Positions 246 to 37,142 of a DNA stretch of 64,000 nucleotides are shown piece after piece. The stretch's first letter is position 1, and every line of letters starts with the position of its first letter. The notes under the pieces were generated by a model, which saw nothing but the letters and a program-made list of their open reading frames with translations, was not told the origin of the DNA and ran no database searches. The stretch is from Minisyncoccota bacterium (GTDB taxonomy: Bacteria; Patescibacteriota; Minisyncoccia; Phycocordibacterales; UBA9973). The stretch is from positions 10,703 to 74,702 of the forward strand of contig JBAYHW010000004.1 in the NCBI GenBank assembly GCA_041665925.1, given 5' to 3'. Both the position numbers and the translations under genes were made by a program.

Positions 246-956
246 CCAAAACTAATATTTTTTGATACAGAGACCACAGGCAACACTGAAGAAGACTTTT
301 TAGTCCAGATTGCTTATAAAACTGGCGATGAATCTTTTTCCGAACTTTATAAACCAGAAATAAAAATTCCTCCGGAAGCTTCCGCGGTGCATCACATCAC
401 GAATAAGATGGTAGAAAATAAACCCACCTTTAAAGAAAGCACTGATCAACCAATTATTAAAAAACTTTTTGAAGATAAAGATTCAGTCGTCGTCGCTCAC
501 AATGCCCCCTTTGACCTGATGGTCATAAAAAAGGAAGATATCATACCGAAAAATTTCATTTGTACTCTGCGCGTAGCCCGCGAGCTAGACCCCGAAGGAA
601 AAATTGAACGCTACAATTTACAATATTTACGTTACTTACTAGACCTAGACGTGGAAGCTACAGCGCACGATGCCCTCGGTGACGTTTTAGTATTAGAAAA
701 ACTTTTTGATAGATTGAAAAATAAACTTACTGAAAGTGGTTTAAGTGAAGACGAAGCTATTGCGAAAATGATAGAAATTTCTTCGCATCCATCAATCTTT
801 CGTACCTTCAGCTTCGGCAAGCATAACGGTAAAAAGATAGAGGAAGTACTCACCACCGACCGCGGATACCTGGAGTGGCTACTTGCCCAGAAGCTCGAAA
901 GTGGCCAGCTAGAAGAAGATTGGATTTACACTCTAAAGCATCATTTGGAGAAATAG
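243..956 (+). CDS. DnaQ-like DEDDh 3-prime-5-prime exonuclease with small C-terminal domain
   Basis: Exo motifs FFDTETTG, HNAPFD, HDALGD in ORF translation. Confidence 0.8.
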   Translation: MPKLIFFDTETTGNTEEDFLVQIAYKTGDESFSELYKPEIKIPPEASAVHHITNKMVENKPTFKESTDQPIIKKLFEDKDSVVVAHNAPFDLMVIKKEDIIPKNFICTLRVARELDPEGKIERYNLQYLRYLLDLDVEATAHDALGDVLVLEKLFDRLKNKLTESGLSEDEAIAKMIEISSHPSIFRTFSFGKHNGKKIEEVLTTDRGYLEWLLAQKLESGQLEEDWIYTLKHHLEK

Positions 957-1027
957 CTATTTCGTGTTATAATAAAAGTAGTTTCGCACAAAATTCATTG
1001 CGCATAAGCGCTGGAGGGACAAAAATA

Positions 1028-1231
1028 ATGCTTCATAAAGGCATCGTGCTCATTTTTGGAGAAGAAGGTTCCCTGCGGGGAACGTTCATCTCCGAGAGGA
1101 GTAACATACCGGCCCCCATCCCTGATTTCCCCCCCACATATCTTGAAGCGGTGGAGTGGATCAGGGAAAGAGCGGCCGATAAAGGTCACAAGGTTCGAGC
1201 GGCCCGCTCGTCCGCGTACCTCATCGAGTAG
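1028..1231 (+). CDS. small SD-led protein (67 aa) inside GC-rich island 1, unknown function
   Basis: GGAGGG at 1013-1018, 9 nt before ATG 1028; GC-rich codon usage; followed by terminator. Confidence 0.4.
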   Translation: MLHKGIVLIFGEEGSLRGTFISERSNIPAPIPDFPPTYLEAVEWIRERAADKGHKVRAARSSAYLIE

Positions 1232-1244
1232 AAGCATCGTCACG

Positions 1245-1287
1245 GTCGTCGGGAGAGCGTCAGCTCACCGGCGACTCTTCTTTTTTT
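1245..1287 (+). terminator. rho-independent terminator (8-bp GC stem incl. one G-U, then TCTTCTTTTTTT)
   Basis: gtcgtcgg/ccggcgac stem, 15-nt loop, T-run. Confidence 0.6.
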
Positions 1288-1311
1288 ACTTAAAGTGATA
1301 GAATATAAAAT

Positions 1312-2301
1312 ATGGAAAATGCTTTAGGAATAATAATTGGATTAATTGTCGGGGGGATTTTTGTTTATTTTGTTTTGAATAAAAAGAAAGAAGAAACTAA
1401 AACCGAAGACAGCCCGGCGCTTCTTATGCTTCAGCAACAGATGGCAGAGCTCACTCGTGAAGTAAATAAAAATTTAGTAGAAGTCGCTCGAGAACAAACG
1501 AAAACAAATGAAGCTACTAGGCAATTCGTAACCATCGCCGAAAAGCTCGGAGACTTGGAAAAAACTTTAAAACATCAGAAGCAGCGCGGAAACTGGGGCG
1601 AAGCATCACTCGAGCTTATTCTTTCAAACACCTTAGCACCCGGGCAGTTTAAAATGCAGTATGAATTTAAAAATAAAGAAGTGGTAGACGCTGTGATTAT
1701 TACTAAAGAAGGAATTATCCCGATTGATGCGAAATTTTCTTTAGACAATTACGACCGCGTGGTGCACGCGATAGATGACAGACAAAGAGAAGAACTAGAG
1801 AAAGAATTTAAAAATGATTTGAAAAAGCGCATTGATGAAACTTCGAAATACGTCCGCCCCGAAGAAGGCACACTCCCCTTCGCCTTTATGTATATTCCCG
1901 CAGAAGCTATTTATTATGATCTCCTAGTAAACGAAGTCGGGTCAATTAAAGTAAATACTAGAAACCTCATAGACTACGCCTACAACGAGAAAAAGGTTAT
2001 CGTGATTTCTCCGACGACATTCATGGCTTATTTACAATCCGTTCTTTATGGATTCAAGGCTTTTAAAATTGAAGAATCTGCGAAAGAGATAATAAAAAAA
2101 GTGAGTGACTTAACAAAACATTTAAAATCATACGAGGAATATCACAACAAGCTTGGGAATGCCATAGGCACTGTCGTCAATCATTACCAAGCTTCTGGTA
2201 GAGAATATAAAAAAATTGATAAAGATGTTTTAAGAATTACTGGCACGTCGCCAGACATAAATCTTTTGGAAATAGAAAAACCAAAAGTTGATGTAGATTA
2301 A
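1312..2301 (+). CDS. rmuC: DNA recombination protein RmuC family
   Basis: N-terminal TM, coiled coil, RmuC-like C-terminal region in translation. Confidence 0.8.
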   Translation: MENALGIIIGLIVGGIFVYFVLNKKKEETKTEDSPALLMLQQQMAELTREVNKNLVEVAREQTKTNEATRQFVTIAEKLGDLEKTLKHQKQRGNWGEASLELILSNTLAPGQFKMQYEFKNKEVVDAVIITKEGIIPIDAKFSLDNYDRVVHAIDDRQREELEKEFKNDLKKRIDETSKYVRPEEGTLPFAFMYIPAEAIYYDLLVNEVGSIKVNTRNLIDYAYNEKKVIVISPTTFMAYLQSVLYGFKAFKIEESAKEIIKKVSDLTKHLKSYEEYHNKLGNAIGTVVNHYQASGREYKKIDKDVLRITGTSPDINLLEIEKPKVDVD

Positions 2302-2340
2302 AAAAAGTCAGGGCAGGGACGCTTCGGCGTTCCTGCCCTT
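2301..2340 (-). terminator. rho-independent terminator with UUCG tetraloop (also follows rmuC on + strand)
   Basis: agggcagg...cctgccct stem extended by gacgc/gcgtt, loop ttcg; A-run 2301-2306 = T-run on minus strand. Confidence 0.7.
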
Positions 2341-2352
2341 TGCTGTCTCGCT

Positions 2353-2544
2353 CTAGGCAGACAGCTTGATGGCATCCTCGGCGGCTTTCTTGGCCGCGAT
2401 GAGTGCCTCGTTCTTTTCTCTTTCCTTCGCGAACCAATCAGGTGCCGGTTCGCGTCGGTCAAGAACTCCGAGGACAATCATCCCAAAAAACGCCGAGAGC
2501 CAAATGGCGTTTTCGAGAAAGAGTCTCCCGATCACCGTCAACAT
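2353..2544 (-). CDS. small SD-led membrane protein (63 aa) in GC-rich island 2
   Basis: SD AGGAGA 5 nt upstream of ATG (rc); one TM helix; GC-rich. Confidence 0.5.
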   Translation of the reverse strand: MLTVIGRLFLENAIWLSAFFGMIVLGVLDRREPAPDWFAKEREKNEALIAAKKAAEDAIKLSA

Positions 2545-2629
2545 ATGACTCTCCTGTGAATTCCCCCGTTCGAATTGAGCGGGTTACGTTCCTTAAAGGT
2601 ATACAACTCGTATAAAATTCGTCAAGTAA

Positions 2630-2680
2630 AAAAGTGTATAAAAATGTAAAGGGACAGTAACGACGAATCGTTACTGTCCC
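2630..2680 (-). terminator. rho-independent terminator (13-bp stem gggacagtaacga/tcgttactgtccc, loop cgaa, T-rich tail on minus strand)
   Basis: Perfect inverted repeat 2651-2680 followed on minus strand by tttacattttt. Confidence 0.7.
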
Positions 2681-2748
2681 TGTTGAGCATAATTGCTCGA
2701 TACTTTCACTCACCTTCTCCCGGGTGAGCTCCGGTGGACACTAGTTCG

Positions 2749-3411
2749 TCACGCGACGAAATAGTGATGACGACCGCACCCGTGGCAGAACGCCCAGTAC
2801 CTCGTACCAGCGGCCGGAGCCGGCGGGGCGGGAGGCGCGGGCGGAACGGGTCGGCGACCTCGGCGAGCCTCGTGGCTGTCCAACAGCCTGTCGATCATTC
2901 CCGCGAGCAGTGCGAGCGCGAGGCCGAGAGCGAGGAGTCCGAGAACGAGACCAAGGAGGCCCATACCGAGCCATCCCCAGAACCCCAACCCGGACCAGAA
3001 ACCCTGTGTCGCCGGCGGGCAGGCCGGAGGACATGTGACGCACGGCGACGGGCACTGCGGGCAGGCGGGACACGGAACGACGGTCGGCTTCGGAGCAGGC
3101 GGTACGGGGAACGCCACGAGGCGATTCCCACAGGCCGCCTTGTAGCGGATGACGCCGTCGGCATCGACGAGGACGAGATCCCCGGCGACGACCGTGACGA
3201 GCTCGAAGATTCCGCGGGTCCGGTTGAACCCGAGGAAGTCGGTGGACTCGGTCAGGCGGATGGGACGAAGCCCCATATCCGCCATCTGCGCCGTCGTGAG
3301 CGGGCCGACGGTGACGGGGTACTTGTCGAGCTCGGCTCCGGTCGGGACGGGACTCGCCAGCGACACGCTGGCAAAAACGAAAACAGCGATGACGATGAGC
3401 AAATTACGCAT
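2749..3411 (-). CDS. secreted, membrane-anchored Pro/Cys-rich protein (signal peptide, ~85-aa domain, PxP and CPxCP repeats, C-terminal TM)
   Basis: SD AAGGAGGG at 3421-3428 (rc), ATG at 3411; signal peptide MRNLLIVIAVFVFASVSLA; very GC-rich codons. Confidence 0.6.
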   Translation of the reverse strand: MRNLLIVIAVFVFASVSLASPVPTGAELDKYPVTVGPLTTAQMADMGLRPIRLTESTDFLGFNRTRGIFELVTVVAGDLVLVDADGVIRYKAACGNRLVAFPVPPAPKPTVVPCPACPQCPSPCVTCPPACPPATQGFWSGLGFWGWLGMGLLGLVLGLLALGLALALLAGMIDRLLDSHEARRGRRPVPPAPPAPPAPAAGTRYWAFCHGCGRHHYFVA

Positions 3412-3555
3412 TTTTTTGGCCCTCCTTTGAGCCAATCAGGTGTGACCTATCCGGCCACAATCCCTTCTACCACATATTATAGCATAATAAATACCTACTT
3501 GTCAAGCACACATAGAACCCTTGCTTGTCAAATAGAAGCTTGATATAATGTAAAT

Positions 3556-4059
3556 ATGGACAAAGATGAGATAGACAAATTATTGTTCAGGAGAAAGGAT
3601 GAAGACATCAATAAAAAAGATGCATATATTGATTATTGCCTAGAACAATACCGTATCTACCTCCACGTCTTCAACTCCACGAGTGACCGCAGTCAAAAAG
3701 CCAACGAATTCTTCCTCGGGCTAAACGCCGCCATCATAGGTATCCTCGGATACGTAGAAACGAAAGTCTTACCTCATGGAAATATAATTTTTGGGTTAAT
3801 CCCCTTCATCGGCATCAGCATCAGTTATTCTTGGTATAGAATAATTAATTCTTACAGTCAGCTCAACCGCGCGAAATTTAAAGTCATCCACACCCTAGAA
3901 GAAAAGCTACCGATAGCTTTATTTGAAACAGAGTGGAGTCTTCTCGGCAAAGGCTTAGATCCGAAAAAATATGTTCACTTCTCAAAAATTGAAAGAAACA
4001 TCCCTATGACTTTCATAGTGCTTTATGTTGTGATTTTAGTGGCGACGTTGATGAGTTAA
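3556..4059 (+). CDS. hypothetical 2-TM membrane protein (167 aa)
   Basis: ORF with AT-rich host-like composition; two predicted TM helices; promoter-like TTGTCA/TATAAT upstream. Confidence 0.5.
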   Translation: MDKDEIDKLLFRRKDEDINKKDAYIDYCLEQYRIYLHVFNSTSDRSQKANEFFLGLNAAIIGILGYVETKVLPHGNIIFGLIPFIGISISYSWYRIINSYSQLNRAKFKVIHTLEEKLPIALFETEWSLLGKGLDPKKYVHFSKIERNIPMTFIVLYVVILVATLMS

Positions 4060-4062
4060 ATG

Positions 4063-4098
4063 AAAAAACAGTAGCGGCCTCCAGGTGCTACTGTTTTT
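4063..4098. terminator. bidirectional rho-independent terminator between convergent genes
   Basis: aacagtagc...gctactgtt stem flanked by A-run and T-run. Confidence 0.65.
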
Positions 4099-4387
4099 GA
4101 TCGGCATCATGCCGTACCGGTTTGCCGAGGATTCGGCACGTATAATTATACTGCGCCTTTTCTAGTCGCTCGGCCTCCTCGCTCCAGTAATCGTGACGCT
4201 CTTTGAACTCCGCATTGAGTTCATAGAAATGAGCCACTGTCTGGCACTCGAGGATTCGGACGGCGAACGCCGCCAAGCGCCACCGGCGCCATGCGAGAAT
4301 CACTCTCCTGCGAAACCGCATGACGAGCAGGACTCCCGCAAGCTTCCAGGCGATGGCAGCCAGCAAAAGTGTTGTCCTCAGTGTCAT
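4088..4387 (-). CDS. small SD-led membrane protein (99 aa, TM then Arg/Trp-rich segment) in GC-rich island 6
   Basis: SD AAGGAGG 6 nt upstream of ATG (rc of 4385-4387); GC-rich. Confidence 0.5.
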   Translation of the reverse strand: MTLRTTLLLAAIAWKLAGVLLVMRFRRRVILAWRRWRLAAFAVRILECQTVAHFYELNAEFKERHDYWSEEAERLEKAQYNYTCRILGKPVRHDADQKQ

Positions 4388-4460
4388 GTGAACCTCCTTT
4401 TCAAAAATAATATAGCATAGAGTAAAATAAAATGTTATATTCTTTTCTGAAGGTATTTTC

Positions 4461-4532
4461 GGCTCTATCGTCTAACGGTTAGGACATATCCTTCTCAAGG
4501 ATAGAATCGCGGTTCGATTCCGCGTAGAGTCA
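4461..4532 (+). tRNA. tRNA-Glu(CTC)
   Basis: Cloverleaf by hand: acceptor GGCTCTA/TAGAGTC (G2-U71), anticodon loop TTCTCAA, T-loop TTCGATT. Confidence 0.85.
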
Positions 4533-4539
4533 CACGACC

Positions 4540-4570
4540 AAAAAGCACTAGAATATTCTAGTGCTTTTTG
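4540..4570 (+). terminator. rho-independent terminator directly after tRNA-Glu
   Basis: agcactagaat/attctagtgct perfect stem then TTTTT. Confidence 0.75.
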
Positions 4571-4668: not shown

Positions 4669-4684
4669 GAAAGCGTACTCGCGT

Positions 4685-4701
4685 TTCCGCGTAGAGTCAC
4701 A
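4685..4701 (+). repeat. direct repeat of the 3-prime end of tRNA-Glu(CTC) (ttccgcgtagagtcaca), att-like
   Basis: 17/17 identical to 4518..4534. Confidence 0.7.
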
Positions 4702-4709
4702 AAACAAAT

Positions 4710-9306: not shown

Positions 9307-11022
9307 CTATCGATCTGGGGGAACGTCGTAGTAATTTAATAAAAACTTGGTAATATCTAAAAACGGCACAGTCCACGTAGTCGCTGCATACTGAACTTCT
9401 TTCGGGTTAATTGCGTACAGAAAAATTATAAATTTTGGGTCATACGCTGGGAAATATCCGACAAAAGAATGCGTATGCTTGTCTTCATAATAACCTCCAG
9501 AAGTATTGTCTGCAACTTGCGCTGTTCCTGTTTTTACGGCGACACTAAAATGTTCCAAGCCTACCTTTAATCCTTTATCCATGACCGTCACTAGCATTCT
9601 GCTTATTTCCTGTGCAGTGACTTTAGAAATTTTCGTTGGGATAGTGGGATATGTCATTTTCTTGGATGTGCCGTTGTTATATTTTATTTCTTTCACTACA
9701 TGCGGCACGACTAAATTCCCTCCATTCCCAAGAGACGCCAGGGCCCGCACAAGCTCTATGGGGGTAAGCGCGATACCCTGCCCGAAAGCAGCGTTAGCAT
9801 ATTCTATTTCGCGGGGGCTAGTGAGAATGTTAGAGACGAGCCCGCTTGTTTCATTTGGTAAATCAATTCCTGTTTTATCTTTAATACCAAAAGCGAGGAG
9901 ATAATTTCTTAAATTTATTTTCCCGAGTTTACCTTCAACGAAAACCATCCCTGTGTTCAAAGATTGATTGAGTACGTCTTGCATTGTTGTCCCAGGTCCA
10001 CGTGCCTTCTTGTCAAAGTTAAATATTTCCTTCTTTTCAACTATTACCGAACCTTTATCGTTATACTGCGTAGATGCCGTTAGAACTCCTTCGTTTAGAG
10101 CAGCAGCCATCACGAGAGGTTTCACCACAGATCCAAATTCTAGAACATTTTCTACTAAAGGATTAGTAAAAACAGAAATTTGTTTTACGTCTGAAAAAGT
10201 ATTCGGATCAAAATCCGGCTTTGCCCCTAGTGCATAAATCGATCCATCCATGGGGTTCATAATTATCCCTCCGATAGCGTCCACATTATATTTATTTTTT
10301 ACTTCGGTTAGCTTTTTTTCTAAAAAATTTTGCACCTGAGGCTCAATGGTGGTAACCAAGTCTCCCTCGGGCTCCGCATCCTCAAACAAACTTTTATTAA
10401 TGTTAGAGAAAACTTCCGCGAAGAAGTTCACATATGGATTATCAGTGTTGCGGGCTAAAGTAGAATCATACTGACGCTCGAGACCGTATCTTCCTCCGAG
10501 TTCATCCCCTTTGTACCCTACAAATCCTAAAGCGTGAGAAGCCATATTTTCCCCGGGGTAAAAACGCCATTTTTCTTTAAAAATATTTACGCCGGGAAGT
10601 TTTAATGCAGAGATGGCATCAGCTTCTGTTTTAGAAATACGATTAGCTATTTCTTCGTAAGGATCATTAACCTTACTCGCCCGAGCTATGAAATTATCGT
10701 GATCAATGGAAATAATTTTTGATAATTTTTCGTAAGTATTCTCTGGATCCCCCAACTTAGCGGTATTCAGAGCTATCTTCAGTCCAGAAGTCTGCGTAGC
10801 AGCAGAAACGAGTTGCCCGTCTTTGCGTTCAAAATATATTGTGCCTCGTTCGTATATGTTTGAAGTCGGAGTAGCATACTGTCTGTCTGCTGTCTCTCCA
10901 TATATTCGTCCATTTACAACTTGCACGTAAAAAAGCTTGGTTACAAGTATCACTGCAAACAAGACCACACAAAAGAGGATGATTCTGGAGCGAATCTTAA
11001 AACTAGATTTCATTGTTGGCAA
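9307..11022 (-). CDS. ftsI: penicillin-binding protein / FtsI transpeptidase
   Basis: SVVK, SLN, KTG motifs; dcw context. Confidence 0.85.
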   Translation of the reverse strand: MPTMKSSFKIRSRIILFCVVLFAVILVTKLFYVQVVNGRIYGETADRQYATPTSNIYERGTIYFERKDGQLVSAATQTSGLKIALNTAKLGDPENTYEKLSKIISIDHDNFIARASKVNDPYEEIANRISKTEADAISALKLPGVNIFKEKWRFYPGENMASHALGFVGYKGDELGGRYGLERQYDSTLARNTDNPYVNFFAEVFSNINKSLFEDAEPEGDLVTTIEPQVQNFLEKKLTEVKNKYNVDAIGGIIMNPMDGSIYALGAKPDFDPNTFSDVKQISVFTNPLVENVLEFGSVVKPLVMAAALNEGVLTASTQYNDKGSVIVEKKEIFNFDKKARGPGTTMQDVLNQSLNTGMVFVEGKLGKINLRNYLLAFGIKDKTGIDLPNETSGLVSNILTSPREIEYANAAFGQGIALTPIELVRALASLGNGGNLVVPHVVKEIKYNNGTSKKMTYPTIPTKISKVTAQEISRMLVTVMDKGLKVGLEHFSVAVKTGTAQVADNTSGGYYEDKHTHSFVGYFPAYDPKFIIFLYAINPKEVQYAATTWTVPFLDITKFLLNYYDVPPDR

Positions 11023-12810: not shown

Positions 12811-12906
12811 TTTAATTAAAATTACTTAAAAATAACTTTTGCACAGATTTCCCACTTTTTCCCACTTGATTAACATTATAAACCACTATGCAAAATAACA
12901 CCAAGC

Positions 12907-12915
12907 TCCGCCTGT
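12907..12915 (-). promoter_or_regulatory. perfect DnaA-box consensus (TGTGGATAA = rc TTATCCACA)
   Basis: Exact 9-mer; second exact copy at 21952..21960 with identical 13-mer context. Confidence 0.4.
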
Positions 12916-13029
12916 GGATAACTCCGACGCTAGGCAAGGCCTAGGTCGGAGCCCGACTTCCCTTGAACGTCGGGCTTAATGGTCGACAAAACATAGGTAT
13001 TGTGGTTATATGAGTGCAAGGAGAAAGGA

Positions 13030-13176
13030 ATGTTCGAAGTTGACTGGTGGCTCTGGTTGCAGATTTTGGCTGGCTGCGTAGCAGTCGGCTTGACCTACCT
13101 CATGCTCCTTGGGGCATGGGTTGACCATCACAAAAAACGAAAGGAGGAGAATCACAAAAATACCCCGTCGGCCTAG
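13030..13176 (+). CDS. small SD-led membrane peptide (48 aa) in GC-rich island 3
   Basis: AGGAG 8 nt upstream of ATG 13030; single TM helix; not in ORF track (<60 aa). Confidence 0.4.
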   Translation: MFEVDWWLWLQILAGCVAVGLTYLMLLGAWVDHHKKRKEENHKNTPSA

Positions 13177-13230
13177 CCACGGAGTATCGCTATTTGTGGA
13201 GAAGTTTTTAAAAGATGTTATAATTTAAAT

Positions 13231-21030: not shown

Positions 21031-21039
21031 AAAAACCTG

Positions 21040-21126
21040 CGGAGGCGGTGAGATTTGAACTCACGATCGAGTTGCCCCGATGCCGGTTTTCGAAACCGGT
21101 GCCTTCAACCACTCAGCCACGCCTCC
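21040..21126 (-). tRNA. tRNA-Ser(CGA)
   Basis: Hand-folded cloverleaf with long variable arm; anticodon loop TTCGAAA. Confidence 0.8.
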
Positions 21127-21236: not shown

Positions 21237-21461
21237 TTAAATACTATTTTGCAAAATAAAAACCTCTTCAATATTTTTTTGCTGTAAAGCTTTGGTTATT
21301 TTATAAGCCAAAAGAAGGGACGGATTATAACGATTTTGTTCAAGCGAAATAATAGTCTGCCTAGTCACTCCGACAGCTTGCGCCAGTTGCTCCTGGGTAA
21401 TAGAGAGTTTATTCCTAAAGTAAGAAATCCGTGTTTCCATAATATTAATTTTTTTTATCAA
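21237..21461 (-). CDS. XRE-family HTH transcriptional regulator (YozG-like)
   Basis: [33 protein letters not shown] motif. Confidence 0.8.
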
Positions 21462-21873
21462 GATAAAAATTTGATACAGCTTTTACTACGAGCCCCACAA
21501 CTACAGCAATCAAAATTACAGGATCTATTTTCGAAATATCTTGAGTCATCACTCCTGTTGCAGTCTGATAAGCAGCCCCGACTATAAGAACAGCCAAGAT
21601 AACCCATAGGGCATTTCTCTCGGCAATAGCCTCGTGAATTCTATCTCTCTCATCTTTCGGCAAATGAATCATAATATCAATAAAGTCACAACTCACTATT
21701 AATGCCCAAATCACAATAAGCACGATACGTGTTTGGCTTATGGGTGGGAAACTCGTAAGCAAAACAAGTGGTAATATTGAGATCGCGACATATATCCACC
21801 CCTGCCAGGTAACTGGGGTAAAGCCCCAACCTGTATATTTCCTTCTCCTAAACCATTCGTGTTTTCCTATCAT
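21445..21873 (-). CDS. membrane protein (DUF2178-like partner of small XRE regulators)
   Basis: 4 TM helices; overlaps downstream HTH gene as in yozG-type pairs. Confidence 0.5.
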
Positions 21874-21926: not shown

Positions 21927-21951
21927 TACACAAGTAGGGCTGTGGATAACT

Positions 21952-21960
21952 CAAATAAGC
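21952..21960 (-). promoter_or_regulatory. perfect DnaA-box consensus
   Basis: TGTGGATAA; context ctgtggataactc shared with 12906..12918. Confidence 0.4.
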
Positions 21961-22107
21961 AAATAAAAACCCCGTAGAAACTACGAGGCCGCTTTGAAGC
22001 TGGTGGCGGTATAAACACGCCGATGTAAAACAAATTTTAAAAAGAACTAATGTTCGCCTTCCCCCGCCCTAGGCACTAGCGGCGGGGGTGTCGCTGGAGA
22101 GGTTTAC

Positions 22108-22482
22108 TCACTCTCCGACATGTTCACCGAGCTGGGGCATGTCCCCGTGAGGGCGAACCGTTGCAACCGGTGAAGGGACTTTCCGCTCCTCCGGCGAAGG
22201 CGCGGTGGCAGACGCCGAGACGGACACGGTGGATGACGGCTGTCGAACGGGTGCCGATCCCATGTCCCGCTGGAGCCGAACCGAGACGAGCACACCGTGC
22301 TCGTCGGACTCCATGTCCTCGTGCCAAAAACGCACGAAGTCGCCCCTCTTCCCCGCAGCGACGAAGTACGTACCCCTCTCCAAACTTCTGGTAAGGTTCC
22401 CGGTGATCGTAGACCCCTCCTCTTTGATCACGGTTACCTTTTTCCCTTCTTTGATGAGTGCGTCCAACAACTTGGTATGCAT
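22108..22482 (-). CDS. SD-led small protein with Sm-like/barrel N-domain and low-complexity Ser/Pro/Ala tail, GC-rich island 4
   Basis: SD AAGGAGG 8 nt before ATG (rc 22480-22482); GC-rich. Confidence 0.45.
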   Translation of the reverse strand: MHTKLLDALIKEGKKVTVIKEEGSTITGNLTRSLERGTYFVAAGKRGDFVRFWHEDMESDEHGVLVSVRLQRDMGSAPVRQPSSTVSVSASATAPSPEERKVPSPVATVRPHGDMPQLGEHVGE

Positions 22483-22583
22483 TTCGCATGCCTCCTTAGG
22501 TCATCTTTTTAACATAAAAAACGCTATATGGCAAATGCTGTTTTGGGAGTATAATAAACTCATTATTATTTATTTAAAAATTT

Positions 22584-31450: not shown

Positions 31451-31473
31451 AGCTAAATACTAGCAAAAATTTG

Positions 31474-31545
31474 TGCCCTCGGCAAGAATCGAACTTACAT
31501 CTATTCCTTAGGACGGAACTGTTCTATCCATTGAACTACGAGGGC
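31474..31545 (-). tRNA. tRNA-Arg(CCT)
   Basis: Hand-folded; anticodon loop GTCCTAA; T-loop TTCGATT. Confidence 0.75.
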
Positions 31546-31793: not shown

Positions 31794-31875
31794 AAAAAAT
31801 TCCCGCTTCAGGCGGACGTCCGCCCCAGGCGGAAATTACTTTTAATCTTTTAATTATAGCATACGTGTCAAGTAG

Positions 31876-31946
31876 TGCGGGATGCGAGAATCGAACTCGC
31901 GTCTAATCCTTGGGAAGGACTCATTTTACCACTAAACTAATCCCGC
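31876..31946 (-). tRNA. tRNA-Gly(CCC)
   Basis: Hand-folded; anticodon loop TTCCCAA; T-loop TTCGATT. Confidence 0.75.
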
Positions 31947-35687: not shown

Positions 35688-36804
35688 AATGGATAAAATA
35701 ATAAGCCTAAGAAATAATGTCACCCGCTTCACCTACCGATGGATTATAAAACCTATCTTTTTCCAAATAGACCCCGAAGTTATACATGATATTATGGTGG
35801 TTTTCTTGAATTTCTTAGGAAAATTCTCAATACTCAGAAAAATTGCTTATTTCTGTTGGGGATATTCAAATCAACAGTTGGAGCAGAAAATATTAGGCAT
35901 AAAATTCAAGAACCCCGTCGGACTAGCTGCTGGTTTTGACAAAAATGCAAAGATAATAAATATTATGCCTTCACTTGGTTTTGGCTTCACTGAGGTAGGC
36001 TCAATAACTGGAGAAAAATGTGAAGGTAATCCTAAACCCAGACTCTGGAGATTGAAAAAATCAAAATCGTTAGCTGTGTATTATGGTTTAAAAAATGATG
36101 GTTGTGAAATCATCTCAAAGAGAATAAAGGAAAATAACCCCCAGATCCCCATGGGTATAAATATTGCGAAAACTAATTCAAAAAATACTGTTGATGTAGA
36201 GAAAGCAATCCTGGATTATTTTAAAGCTTATCAGGCTTTTATAAATATTGGCGACTATGTAACAATCAATATTAGTTGCCCAAATGCTTTTGGTGGCCAG
36301 CCTTTTACAGATACAGCTAAACTAGATGCATTGTTGATGAAAATTTTTTCTACCCCTAAAACAAAACCGATTTTTTTGAAGATCTCCCCAGATTTGAGCG
36401 TGAAAGAAATAGACGATATCGTAAATGTAGTTTCAAAATATGAAATAGATGGCTTTGTGTGCACCAACCTGACAAAGAACCGTGACAACAAAAATATTAT
36501 TGATAAATATATCCCTGAAAAAGGAGGACTGTCCGGGAAAGTGGTAGATAGTATGTCGGATGATTTAATAAGATACATTTATAAAAAAACAAACGGCAAA
36601 TACATAATCATCGGCGTTGGTGGAATATTTACCGCTGAAGATGCTTATAGGAAAATAAAAGCAGGGGCCTCATTACTACAGCTAATAACTGGAATGATAT
36701 ACGAAGGTCCCCAAGCTGTAAGTGCTATTAACCTCGGTCTAGTAAAACTATTAAAAAAAGACGGTTATCAAAATATCTCTGAAGCTATAGGAAAAGAAAA
36801 TTAA
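35688..36804 (+). CDS. pyrD: dihydroorotate dehydrogenase (quinone), class 2 (ORF-track start 35488 overlaps eno and is rejected)
   Basis: LGIKFKNPVGLAAGFDKNA motif; N-terminal membrane-association helix. Confidence 0.9.
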
Positions 36805-36844
36805 AATAAAAAAACAGGTGAGCGTAGAAACTACAGCTCACCTG
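36805..36844 (-). terminator. rho-independent terminator (caggtgagc/gctcacctg, loop gtagaaactaca) followed by second hairpin 36847..36875
   Basis: 9-bp stem preceded by A-run on + strand (= T-run on minus). Confidence 0.7.
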
Positions 36845-36888
36845 TGTGGATGGCGACGCGCCACCCACACAGGTGTTGCGCTCGTCGA

Positions 36889-37068
36889 CTAGGCGTCGTT
36901 GGTCGGGCTCTCCGCGACGCTGCCCGAATCCGGCTTGGTCTCAGTCTCGACAGTGGGCTCCTTCCCACAGTCGAGACAAGTGAGATTCCCGCCATGCGAC
37001 CGCATCCTTACAACGAAACCGTCACATCCGGGTTCGTTGCAGTGCAACCGATTGTCAGTTCCCAACAT
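36889..37068 (-). CDS. SD-led small zinc-ribbon-like protein (59 aa; C-x4-C ... C-x2-C) in GC-rich island 5
   Basis: SD GGGAGG 7 nt upstream of ATG (rc 37066-37068); 4 Cys in ribbon spacing. Confidence 0.5.
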   Translation of the reverse strand: MLGTDNRLHCNEPGCDGFVVRMRSHGGNLTCLDCGKEPTVETETKPDSGSVAESPTNDA

Positions 37069-37142
37069 AAATGGACCTCCCTCTTGTATGCACCGCATTC
37101 GTCATGAATGGATGCGGACTAATCATCCAACACATTACAATA

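Follow-up and report, generated by a model that had tools for sequence, protein, structure and literature searches.

Phage morons, described in lambdoid phages by Hendrix, Juhala and colleagues, are reportedly single genes equipped with a promoter and a factor-independent terminator of their own, and they are said to separate genes that are direct neighbours in relatives and to differ in composition from their flanks. In Bacteroidota, according to what is reported of the work of Jha (2021) and McNutt (2023), rpsU is led by a Shine-Dalgarno (SD) sequence, the anti-SD is occluded and ribosomes without bS21 favour SD mRNAs. The flexible islets of Prochlorococcus and SAR11 are variable hot spots between core genes and hold mostly hypothetical or surface-related genes. 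As regards translation in CPR bacteria, we know of no experimental study. Genomic islands have been reported in Patescibacteria (PMC12455944), and a dichotomy of leaderless and SD-led genes has been described in Actinobacteria, Deinococcus and archaea (PMC3898074, PMC3160421, PMC6028130). In Parcubacteria the anti-SD motif was found in only 48% of 16S genes, and bS21 was reported to be often absent (Tsurumaki et al. 2022, PMC9297842).

In our study, six GC-rich islands with seven small ORFs were analysed in the window, i.e. the whole stretch of 64,000 nucleotides. By a modest preference we read them as moron-like accessory cassettes from a flexible gene pool common to Paceibacterota. As the class recurs across relatives, it would form a separate gene class of fast turnover and probably does not stem from a single import event out of a high-GC host. 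With phage morons the cassettes share a predicted promoter of their own, one ORF and a predicted terminator (I4 is without a clear one), as well as the insertion between genes adjacent in relatives (at exoX-rmuC) and a composition different from the flanks. Unlike morons, they are located in a chromosomal housekeeping context with no phage genes nearby, they are GC-richer than the host and they differ from it in the mode of translation initiation; the island proteins gave no match in PHROG, IMG/VR and phage databases. As for Bacteroidota rpsU, the core ignores the SD and a small strong-SD set remains, which implies a separate translational channel, but the SD-led set here consists of accessory, GC-rich and fast-evolving small proteins whereas rpsU is ribosomal and autoregulatory. 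The leaderless/SD dichotomy is resembled in that the -10 box of leaderless genes lies 6-8 nt before the ATG and a second set has a leader and an SD; the SD-led genes are native in composition there and compositional outliers here. Two of the seven ORFs, I4 (48 aa) and I2a (63 aa), are like type I toxins in having one hydrophobic helix each. Like the flexible islets and the Patescibacteria islands, the cassettes occupy hot spots between core genes, their content varies among close relatives, and it consists mostly of hypothetical and surface-related genes; unlike the islets, they are far smaller (one gene, 250-1100 bp) and have a uniform expression architecture tied to the SD/GC signature. Mini-cassettes of this kind are not mentioned in the searched passages of PMC12455944, and literature searches returned no description of a GC-rich, SD-led cassette class.

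The islands were called with 120-nt windows at a GC threshold of 0.52, the mean GC of the window being 38.9% (sd 7.3%). All six GC-rich segments noticed in the initial annotation were recovered by this computation. The 55-65% GC given there holds for the core of island 2 only; the islands have 52-59%, and the figure of about 35% for the flanks is slightly low. The promoters listed below were identified by their match to the consensus, which is often met with in AT-rich DNA; the energies given for SD sequences are anti-SD duplex energies.

Island 1
1041-1300: GC-rich island, 55% GC
946..973, plus strand: promoter-like site, TGGAGA-16-TATAAT with upstream TG (consensus match)
1013..1018, plus strand: SD of I1, GGAGGG, 9 nt before the ATG, -9.8 kcal/mol
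1028..1231, plus strand: coding sequence I1, 67 aa, without known family; GC1/2/3 = 0.57/0.46/0.63
1244..1285, plus strand: predicted intrinsic terminator of I1, hairpin and T-run, -22.7 kcal/mol, z -3.9
1296..1304, plus strand: extended -10 (TGaTAGAAT), predicted leaderless promoter at the cassette's 3' side, 7 nt upstream of the rmuC ATG

Island 2
2281-3460: GC-rich island, 59% GC; core 2701-3300, 66-69% GC
2300..2340, minus strand: predicted terminator of I2a, hairpin and U7, back to back with the rmuC end, -24.2 kcal/mol, z -4.3
2353..2544, minus strand: coding sequence I2a, 63 aa, one hydrophobic helix followed by a charged helix; GC3 0.66
2550..2555, minus strand: SD of I2a, AGGAGA, 5 nt before the ATG, -7.4 kcal/mol
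2650..2681, minus strand: predicted intrinsic terminator of I2b, 14-bp stem, -29.7 kcal/mol, z -9.2
2749..3411, minus strand: coding sequence I2b, 220 aa, GC 0.67, GC3 0.78
3412..3469, minus strand: putative 5' leader of I2b, about 58 nt as placed from the -10 box, -22.3 kcal/mol, z -3.7
3420..3427, minus strand: SD of I2b, AAGGAGGG, 8 nt before the ATG, -12.1 kcal/mol
3476..3505, minus strand: predicted promoter of I2b, TTGACA-18-TATAAT with TG, 12/12 matches, in AT-rich DNA

Island 3
4081-4400: GC-rich island, above the 0.52 GC threshold
4064..4098, minus strand: predicted terminator of I3, hairpin and U6, overlapping the stop codon, z -5.0
4088..4387, minus strand: coding sequence I3, 99 aa, N-terminal TM helix; GC3 0.65
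4392..4399, minus strand: SD of I3, AAGGAGGT, -12.3 kcal/mol
4409..4438, minus strand: promoter-like site with TG (consensus match)

Island 4
12901-13180: GC-rich island, 52.5% GC
13019..13024, plus strand: SD of I4, AGGAGA, -8.5 kcal/mol
13030..13176, plus strand: coding sequence I4, TM peptide of 48 aa; GC3 0.67

Island 5
21981-22460: GC-rich island, 59% GC
21960..21992, minus strand: predicted distal terminator of I5, hairpin and U-run, by folding
22061-22088, minus strand: second I5 hairpin, without U-run, by folding
22108..22482, minus strand: coding sequence I5, 124 aa, soluble, ORFan; GC3 0.71
22491..22498, minus strand: SD of I5, TAAGGAGG, -12.0 kcal/mol

Island 6
36801-37100: GC-rich island, 56% GC
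36810..36880, minus strand: predicted terminator region of I6, 17-bp hairpin, second hairpin and U7, -40.7 kcal/mol, z -6.1
36889..37068, minus strand: coding sequence I6, 59 aa, CxxC...CxxC, zinc-ribbon-like; GC3 0.72
37076..37081, minus strand: SD of I6, GGGAGG, -12.1 kcal/mol

Pooled GC1/GC2/GC3 was found to be 0.62/0.48/0.71 in the island ORFs and 0.48/0.35/0.35 in the host genes. The order GC3 > GC1 > GC2 holds in all seven SD-defined frames (chance about 4e-6), and hence the island ORFs are real coding sequences. Ala, Arg and Pro are over-represented in their proteins, and Lys, Ile and Asn under-represented, a bias of the kind that goes with high GC; the islands are compositionally foreign in both codon-position GC and amino-acid usage. 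The neighbours of the islands are exoX, rmuC, the dcw cluster, lysS and pyrD. The gene identities proposed earlier for lysS, greA, ftsZ, trxB and gdh agree with Pfam, which also gives ftsA and mraZ. Contigs from ENA (L001) and Logan (L094, L095) match the window with 100% identity over the island junctions, and the islands are not assembly artefacts. A hairpin with a U-run was predicted after I1, I2a, I2b, I3, I5 and I6 (z -3.6 to -9.2), whereas folding gave no convincing terminator for I4, so the earlier statement of a terminator after each ORF stands for all except the last named. Searches of the seven island proteins with Pfam, PHROGs and PADLOC gave nothing above threshold, and IMG/VR scans with I2b, I5 and I3 gave no match. 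Among ten island-class proteins of relatives, Pfam returned one match, GGDEF. Two of the relatives' proteins had been read by eye as HNH-like, for which Pfam gave no support.

The largest product, I2b, shows in order a signal peptide, a beta-rich ectodomain of about 80 aa, a Cys-Pro stalk, a TM helix and a Pro-rich tail ending in CHGCGRHH; the signal peptide, the CPACPQCPSPCVTCPPACPP stretch, the TM helix and the Cys/His tail described in the initial annotation are all seen. The structure model has pLDDT 94-98 over residues 21-100. I2b would be a surface protein that spans the membrane once, its small beta-rich ectodomain being conserved and its Pro-rich cytoplasmic tail variable, and I2a a small membrane peptide transcribed separately or via read-through. 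Two hairpins were predicted in the I2b leader, the second of which partly pairs the SD. The family comprises 155 clusters, from metagenomes only, and among ten clusters looked up the one named member is a Parcubacteria bacterium. Homologues are present at the same place in relatives L036 and L020, in L002, and at 10 other distinct metagenome loci which have other housekeeping neighbours. In all 14 contexts read the gene is GC-richer than its flanks, and most homologues are SD-led.

The SD contrast between island ORFs and host genes is sharp. All seven island ORFs have their SD 5-9 nt before the ATG, and the anti-SD duplex energy ranges from -7.4 to -12.3 kcal/mol, as compared with a mean of -0.41 kcal/mol for 57 host genes (heuristic gene calls), none of which reaches -6 kcal/mol. 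At random positions the mean is -2.0 kcal/mol and 8.5% are at or below -6. A strong SD is therefore present in 7/7 island ORFs against 0/57 host genes (Fisher p about 1.6e-9). Both earlier observations, a near-consensus SD 5-9 nt before the ATG of island ORFs and its absence from some 14 AT-rich genes then inspected, hold by duplex energy; GC3 and SD usage, of which a uniform distribution had been named as the refuting outcome, were both computed to be non-uniform. Housekeeping genes are without SD even in relatives with 50-56% GC, and operon-internal core genes likewise. Many host genes look leaderless: the -10 box sits 6-8 nt before the ATG. Of 520 genes from AT-rich relatives, 106 show this arrangement. 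The first 60 coding nucleotides fold at -16 to -21 kcal/mol in six of the seven island ORFs versus -6.7 +/- 4.2 in the host. With their leaders and this strong folding, the leaderless or unstructured route would be closed to island mRNAs and recruitment of the 30S by SD:anti-SD pairing would be required; we infer from these features that the SDs are functional and needed. If the anti-SD were absent in this lineage, the SD could not work as proposed; the conserved SDs would be useless to its own ribosomes and would suggest that the genes are expressed somewhere else, such as in the host cell. Neither the window nor any of 82 loci examined with it contained a 16S 3' end, and tblastn with uL1, uL11, uL10 and bS21 found none of these.

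The SD is linked with GC3 in relatives also. In 43 loci of AT-rich relatives, with heuristically called genes, an SD was found at the first ATG in 3% of ORFs with host-like GC3 and in 67% of ORFs with a GC3 excess of at least 0.30. This clade-wide pattern fits a distinct translation-initiation gene class, which had been offered earlier as the alternative, better than import from a donor. ORFs picked by their SD alone have GC3 of about 0.6 irrespective of host GC3 (slope 0.03), though the flat regression is weakened because such ORFs in GC-rich hosts may be host genes with chance motifs.

Turnover is most visible between exoX and rmuC. The gap is 355 bp in the window and is empty (3-4 bp) in L003, L006, L011, L024 and L036, L003 being the closest relative. 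A cassette of 350-490 bp, made up of a predicted promoter, an SD, an ORF of 67-88 aa and a predicted terminator, is present in the window, L004, L007-L009 and L012-L015. The promoter and terminator ends are alike, most of the ORFs are unrelated, and similarity of the ORFs was found only in the pairs L004/L009 and L007/L008; genomes with 79-92% identical RmuC carry ORFs without detectable similarity at this one site. In L005 a terminator and a promoter are left and nothing else of the cassette. The small ORFs were also considered as one fast-evolving family, and a shuffling test spoke against this except for the two pairs. As judged by comparing these loci, closely related genomes differ by gain, loss and replacement of cassettes.

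On our preferred reading as exchanged cassettes, each unit would combine an AT-rich promoter of the sigma-70 type, a strong SD within a 5' leader of some 20-60 nt, a small GC-rich ORF and an intrinsic terminator, and the products would be membrane, secreted or small soluble proteins. The units would lie where operons meet on the chromosome of a Nomurabacteria-like CPR member of the Paceibacterota whose core genes are probably translated from leaderless or SD-less A/U-rich mRNAs. Insertion, replacement and deletion would take place at recurrent hot spots, namely exoX|rmuC and the regions downstream of rmuC and upstream of mraZ, and the sequences would diverge far faster than their neighbours while GC3 stays near 0.6-0.8 at any host GC. 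The promoters are presumably used by the cassettes, exchange presumably follows a recombination route, and the GC-richness would presumably come from a shared GC-richer pool or from selection on island mRNAs. The islands were flanked neither by repeats or target-site duplications nor by common end motifs, and a search for mobility machinery gave nothing, an integrase included; island 3 is adjoined by a 27-nt stretch that repeats the 3' end of tRNA-Glu. More speculatively, and with considerable doubt, two expression systems may coexist: an AT-rich core with leaderless or SD-less mRNAs and a clade-wide, rapidly exchanged, SD-dependent set of small genes which keeps its own GC3 of about 0.6-0.8, being either a gated accessory regulon or an unrecognised CPR-specific GC-rich mobile pool. 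An SD-led class in an otherwise SD-free genome would offer a handle on whether and when CPR ribosomes use SD pairing. The cassettes would mark the flexible, probably surface- or interaction-related part of very small episymbiont genomes and show that this part turns over gene by gene at operon boundaries. Since gene callers trained on AT-rich sequence mis-call the islands, the small-protein content of CPR MAGs is probably under- or mis-annotated, and the GC3/SD signature could serve to catalogue the class in thousands of MAGs.

Another explanation is a vertically inherited Paceibacterota class, in which selection keeps the genes GC-rich and SD-led for structured, stable or gated mRNAs and the patchiness reflects loss and fast divergence; we consider it unlikely. 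Positional orthologues are 28-56% identical where RmuC is 83-98% identical, and in such deeply diverged pairs the SD is kept while the leader has diverged and both copies are high in GC3, as this explanation would predict. It is also consistent with the independence of GC3 from host GC3 in SD-led ORFs, with the pairing of the SD by the I2b leader hairpin, and with a GGDEF gene, syntenic upstream of rmuC, which is host-like in GC-richer hosts and has GC3 0.79 in L078 (host 0.42). The unrelated ORFs at one site, the empty site in L003 and the differing genomic contexts of family members argue against it, however, and in our judgement no selective force is known that would hold GC3 about 0.35 above the genome level.

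A recent import from a high-GC, SD-using non-CPR organism, for instance an actinobacterium or proteobacterium that is host to the episymbiont, with composition and SD un-ameliorated, appears improbable. Such a donor, for example an actinobacterial host, was the origin suggested in the initial annotation. The codon-position GC and amino-acid usage resemble a genome of probably about 60% GC, the islands are patchy among close relatives, and the tRNA-Glu repeat is att-like. Further, I2b shows a sub-threshold match to Pfam DUF6777 (PF20568; 13.1 bits against a gathering threshold of 27), as do 24 of 69 members of its family (best E 3e-6), and DUF6777 is mainly actinobacterial. The ectodomain (...VLVD..G...RYKA.CGNR...) aligns to profile positions 85-110, which may reflect a distant relationship. 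Against a donor, protein searches found no homologue in any high-GC or named non-CPR organism, and in a word-based search of 5.8 billion proteins I3 and I5 matched only themselves (a distant I3 homologue was found in relative L013). The 14 I2b contexts are all CPR-like, with SD-poor housekeeping genes and flanks of 38-53% GC, none being a high-GC genome. No I2b match was obtained in plasmids and phages by tblastn, and the island promoters are AT-rich and host-like. Moreover, the same family at the same site is still GC-rich at an RmuC identity as low as 83%; a single recent un-ameliorated import does not fit, because the diverged orthologues are both GC-rich and SD-led.

That the islands are structured non-coding RNAs, or a chimeric assembly with high-GC reads, and not protein genes is scarcely credible and effectively refuted already: stop codons are scarce in GC-rich DNA, which leaves ORFs open in several frames, and the islands do contain strong hairpins, but the codon-position periodicity lies in the SD-defined frame of every ORF, the I2b family has a conserved domain across its clusters and a confident structure model, Rfam gave tRNAs as its sole matches and no family in the islands even at E <= 0.5, the three assemblies are identical over the junctions, and the cassette architecture recurs in many MAGs of other studies.

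The sequence CTGTGGATAACTC, a 13-mer next to islands 4 and 5, was considered as a cassette part and was instead found to be a conserved host promoter-upstream element. In the ENA annotation, island 2 is called on the wrong strand.

The scan for GC in 120-nt windows has recovered all six GC-rich segments named in the initial annotation, and these show 52-59% GC against 38.9% for the window, in which any other local GC peak corresponds to a tRNA gene or a short intragenic stretch. The window proteins are labelled Candidatus Paceibacterota MAG at NCBI, and among species representatives, MAGs of Nomurabacteria/Paceibacterota come closest, at up to 94% RmuC identity.

Islands from the GC scan and their ORFs, all with a Shine-Dalgarno (SD)-led ATG
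1041-1300, island 1
1028-1231, +, I1, 67 aa
2281-3460, island 2, core 66-69% GC
2353-2544, -, I2a, 63 aa
2749-3411, -, I2b, 220 aa
4081-4400, island 3
4088-4387, -, I3, 99 aa
12901-13180, island 4
13030-13176, +, I4, 48 aa
21981-22460, island 5
22108-22482, -, I5, 124 aa
36801-37100, island 6
36889-37068, -, I6, 59 aa

By codon position, pooled GC3/GC1/GC2 is 0.71/0.62/0.48 in the islands versus 0.35/0.48/0.35 in the host genes (the ordinary AT-rich genes outside them), and the order GC3 > GC1 > GC2 holds in 7/7 SD-defined frames. The island proteins are high in Ala, Arg, Pro, Trp and Cys and low in Lys, Ile and Asn. Rfam returned only tRNAs on the window, even at permissive thresholds. Over the island junctions the window is matched at 100% identity by a MEGAHIT contig from ENA and by two Logan contigs (SRR6484324). 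The islands are real genes and the artefact reading is discarded. As a practical warning, gene callers easily pick the wrong strand of GC-rich islets in AT-rich CPR MAGs: for island 2, ENA (contig L001) gives an antisense 269-aa ORF at 2734-3543 (+) and NCBI the 220-aa protein at 2749-3411 (-).

The initial annotation had also noted strong SD sequences on island ORFs and none on the ~14 host genes it inspected, and this is confirmed. All seven island SDs lie 5-9 nt before the ATG, with duplex energies of -7.4 to -12.3 kcal/mol on a canonical 16S tail, which may not be that of this lineage, whereas the 57 host genes average -0.41 kcal/mol with none at or below -6, and random window positions average -2.0 kcal/mol. 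The window scan of SD-like cores before in-frame starts outside the islands found no ORF-start SD; the core at 10272 is internal to a 568-aa gene. A predicted terminator, a strong hairpin with U-run, follows six of the seven island ORFs, and I4 is the exception. The top promoter matches of island genes lie 20-65 nt upstream by consensus. Host genes were counted over the window and the loci of 42 AT-rich relatives: 106/520 have a TAnAAT -10 hexamer whose end falls exactly 6-8 nt ahead of the ATG, the predicted mark of leaderless mRNAs, while other positions have about 3 each. Because of this count among core genes, operon-first genes in this Paceibacterota clade appear to be expressed mainly as leaderless mRNAs; operon-internal genes there have A/T-rich upstream regions without SD.

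The first 60 coding nt fold at -16 to -21 kcal/mol in 6/7 island ORFs (host genes, -6.7 +/- 4.2). Since these leadered mRNAs fold strongly there and the SD is conserved between orthologues, we infer that the SD of island genes is functional. The main risk to this is the 16S tail of the lineage, the matching anti-SD motif being present in only 48% of Parcubacteria (Tsurumaki et al., PMC9297842). The 39% GC genome keeps the C-wobble tRNAs Glu-CUC (4461-4533, directly adjoining island 3), Ser-CGA (21039-21126), Arg-CCU (31473-31545) and Gly-CCC (31875-31946), which read G-ending codons common in island genes.

The association of GC-richness with SD-led starts is a clade-wide rule. Among 80 rmuC-centred loci from species representatives, 43 are AT-rich with 990 ORFs (heuristic calls), and here the share of ORFs with a strong SD before the first ATG rises with GC3, from 3% where GC3 is host-like to 25-32% where it exceeds the host's by 0.12-0.30 and 67% where the excess is at least 0.30. 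In ORFs selected by strong SD alone (n=65, median 99 aa), GC3 is about 0.6 whatever the host GC3 (slope 0.03), some picks from GC-rich hosts being probably ordinary genes. A gene with a GGDEF domain just upstream of rmuC (L078:9244-9885; homologues at relatives' loci L035, L037, L044, L048, L054 and L055) has SD-like motifs in 7/7 genomes; in GC-richer hosts it has the composition of the host, and the L078 copy has GC3 0.79 versus host 0.42.

These genes turn over at recurring places. The exoX-rmuC gap that harbours island 1 is 3-4 bp in five relatives (L003, the closest, L006, L011, L024 and L036), and in the window and eight other genomes it holds a GC-rich insert of 350-490 bp with a promoter, an SD-led 67-88-aa ORF, a terminator and a new leaderless rmuC promoter. 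In L005 (9917-10000), 84 bp with the terminator hairpin and leaderless rmuC promoter but no ORF looks like a decayed cassette. The insert ends are alignable and the ORFs mostly not; by shuffle test only the L004/L009 (z = 14) and L007/L008 (z = 5.6) ORFs are similar. DNA similarity between window and relatives ends at island borders. Further hot spots are the rmuC-murF stretch and the region upstream of mraZ, where the GC-rich SD-led genes differ per genome. Positional orthologues, where they exist, are 28-56% identical, against 83-98% for RmuC; both copies are GC-rich and keep the SD in a diverged leader. The gene at 3556-4059 (+), between islands 2 and 3, is AT-rich and apparently leaderless and encodes an 8xMP family membrane protein (PF24838, E 1.5e-36); it has a homologue only in L019 among the 80 relatives' loci, so turnover in the region extends to AT-rich accessory genes. 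Beside island 3, the tRNA-Glu(CUC) 3' end is repeated 167 bp downstream (4515-4541 and 4682-4708; 27 nt, 85% identity, 17-nt exact core), a putative att-like scar of integrase-type insertion; the copies are separated by only ~150 bp, with no integrase nearby.

Island 2 holds the one sizeable family.

Predicted signals of I2b
3505-3476, -, promoter, perfect match to TTGACA-18-TATAAT with upstream TG
~58 nt, -, leader, second hairpin predicted to pair partly with the SD
3427-3420, -, SD
2681-2650, -, terminator, 14-bp stem

The I2b protein has a signal peptide, a beta-rich ectodomain of ~80 aa (confidently modelled, pLDDT 94-98), a Cys-Pro stalk, a TM helix and a Pro-rich tail ending in CHGCGRHH, as does the L036 homologue. 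This architecture is conserved in a family of 155 clusters (E <= 1e-3 among 1.84 billion representatives). The model resembled no solved structure found, and sub-threshold similarity to DUF6777 is the sole family signal. Homologues in L036 (same contig as L083) and L020 occupy the same position, convergent with rmuC; those in L002 and ten other distinct metagenome loci neighbour unrelated housekeeping genes, e.g. dprA/topA, uvrB, tsaD/trxB, murF and ftsH. In every context they stand 8-20 GC points above flanks of 38-53% GC, and are usually SD-led. The ten clusters looked up have metagenome members, the lone organism-named one being a Parcubacteria bacterium. I2a, a membrane peptide of 63 aa, has an SD and a terminator of its own and an only weakly predicted promoter. 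The 15-mer TCGTCACGGTCGTCG, common to the island 1 terminator region (1237-1251) and the I2b CDS (3190-3204) in opposite orientation, may point to a common origin or, in GC-rich DNA, have arisen by chance.

The persistent composition could reflect either a GC-richer pool of genes shared and repeatedly exchanged within Paceibacterota, or selection acting on island mRNAs. The lateral-cassette reading stands as far as foreign-looking, cassette-like DNA is concerned, and not in a demonstrable high-GC host origin: an external SD-using donor is unsupported because searches of very large databases found no donor homologues, the I2b family is endemic to CPR-like genomes and GC-richness is kept across deep divergence. 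Housekeeping genes of relatives with 50-56% GC likewise have no SD, so there is no obvious SD-using donor inside the sampled clade. As independent promoter-gene-terminator units of foreign composition between adjacent genes, the cassettes resemble phage morons, but they lie outside any phage and hence outside that category; PHROGs searches with all seven island proteins gave nothing above threshold, and IMG/VR searches with I2b, I3 and I5 and a phage-database search with I2b gave no matches. They are akin to genomic islets or morons, their link to the translation initiation mode is unusual and testable, and the literature searched holds no description of such a GC-rich SD-led class.

Upstream of the I4 promoter, two neighbouring GC-rich hairpins (12925-12985; ccgacgctaggc...gcctaggtcgg and gcccgac...gtcgggc) are common to L009 (19440-19500), missing from other relatives and without Rfam match. 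The exact 13-mer CTGTGGATAACTC, containing the DnaA-box core TGTGGATAA, occurs at 12912-12924 and 21940-21952 and also at L004:18716, L005:18630, L016:19235 and L028:10224. It precedes the leaderless promoters of mraZ and a 142-aa gene (21445-21873) by ~45-60 nt, is conserved upstream of mraZ among relatives, and is probably a host regulatory site (for DnaA or another factor) of the division operon.
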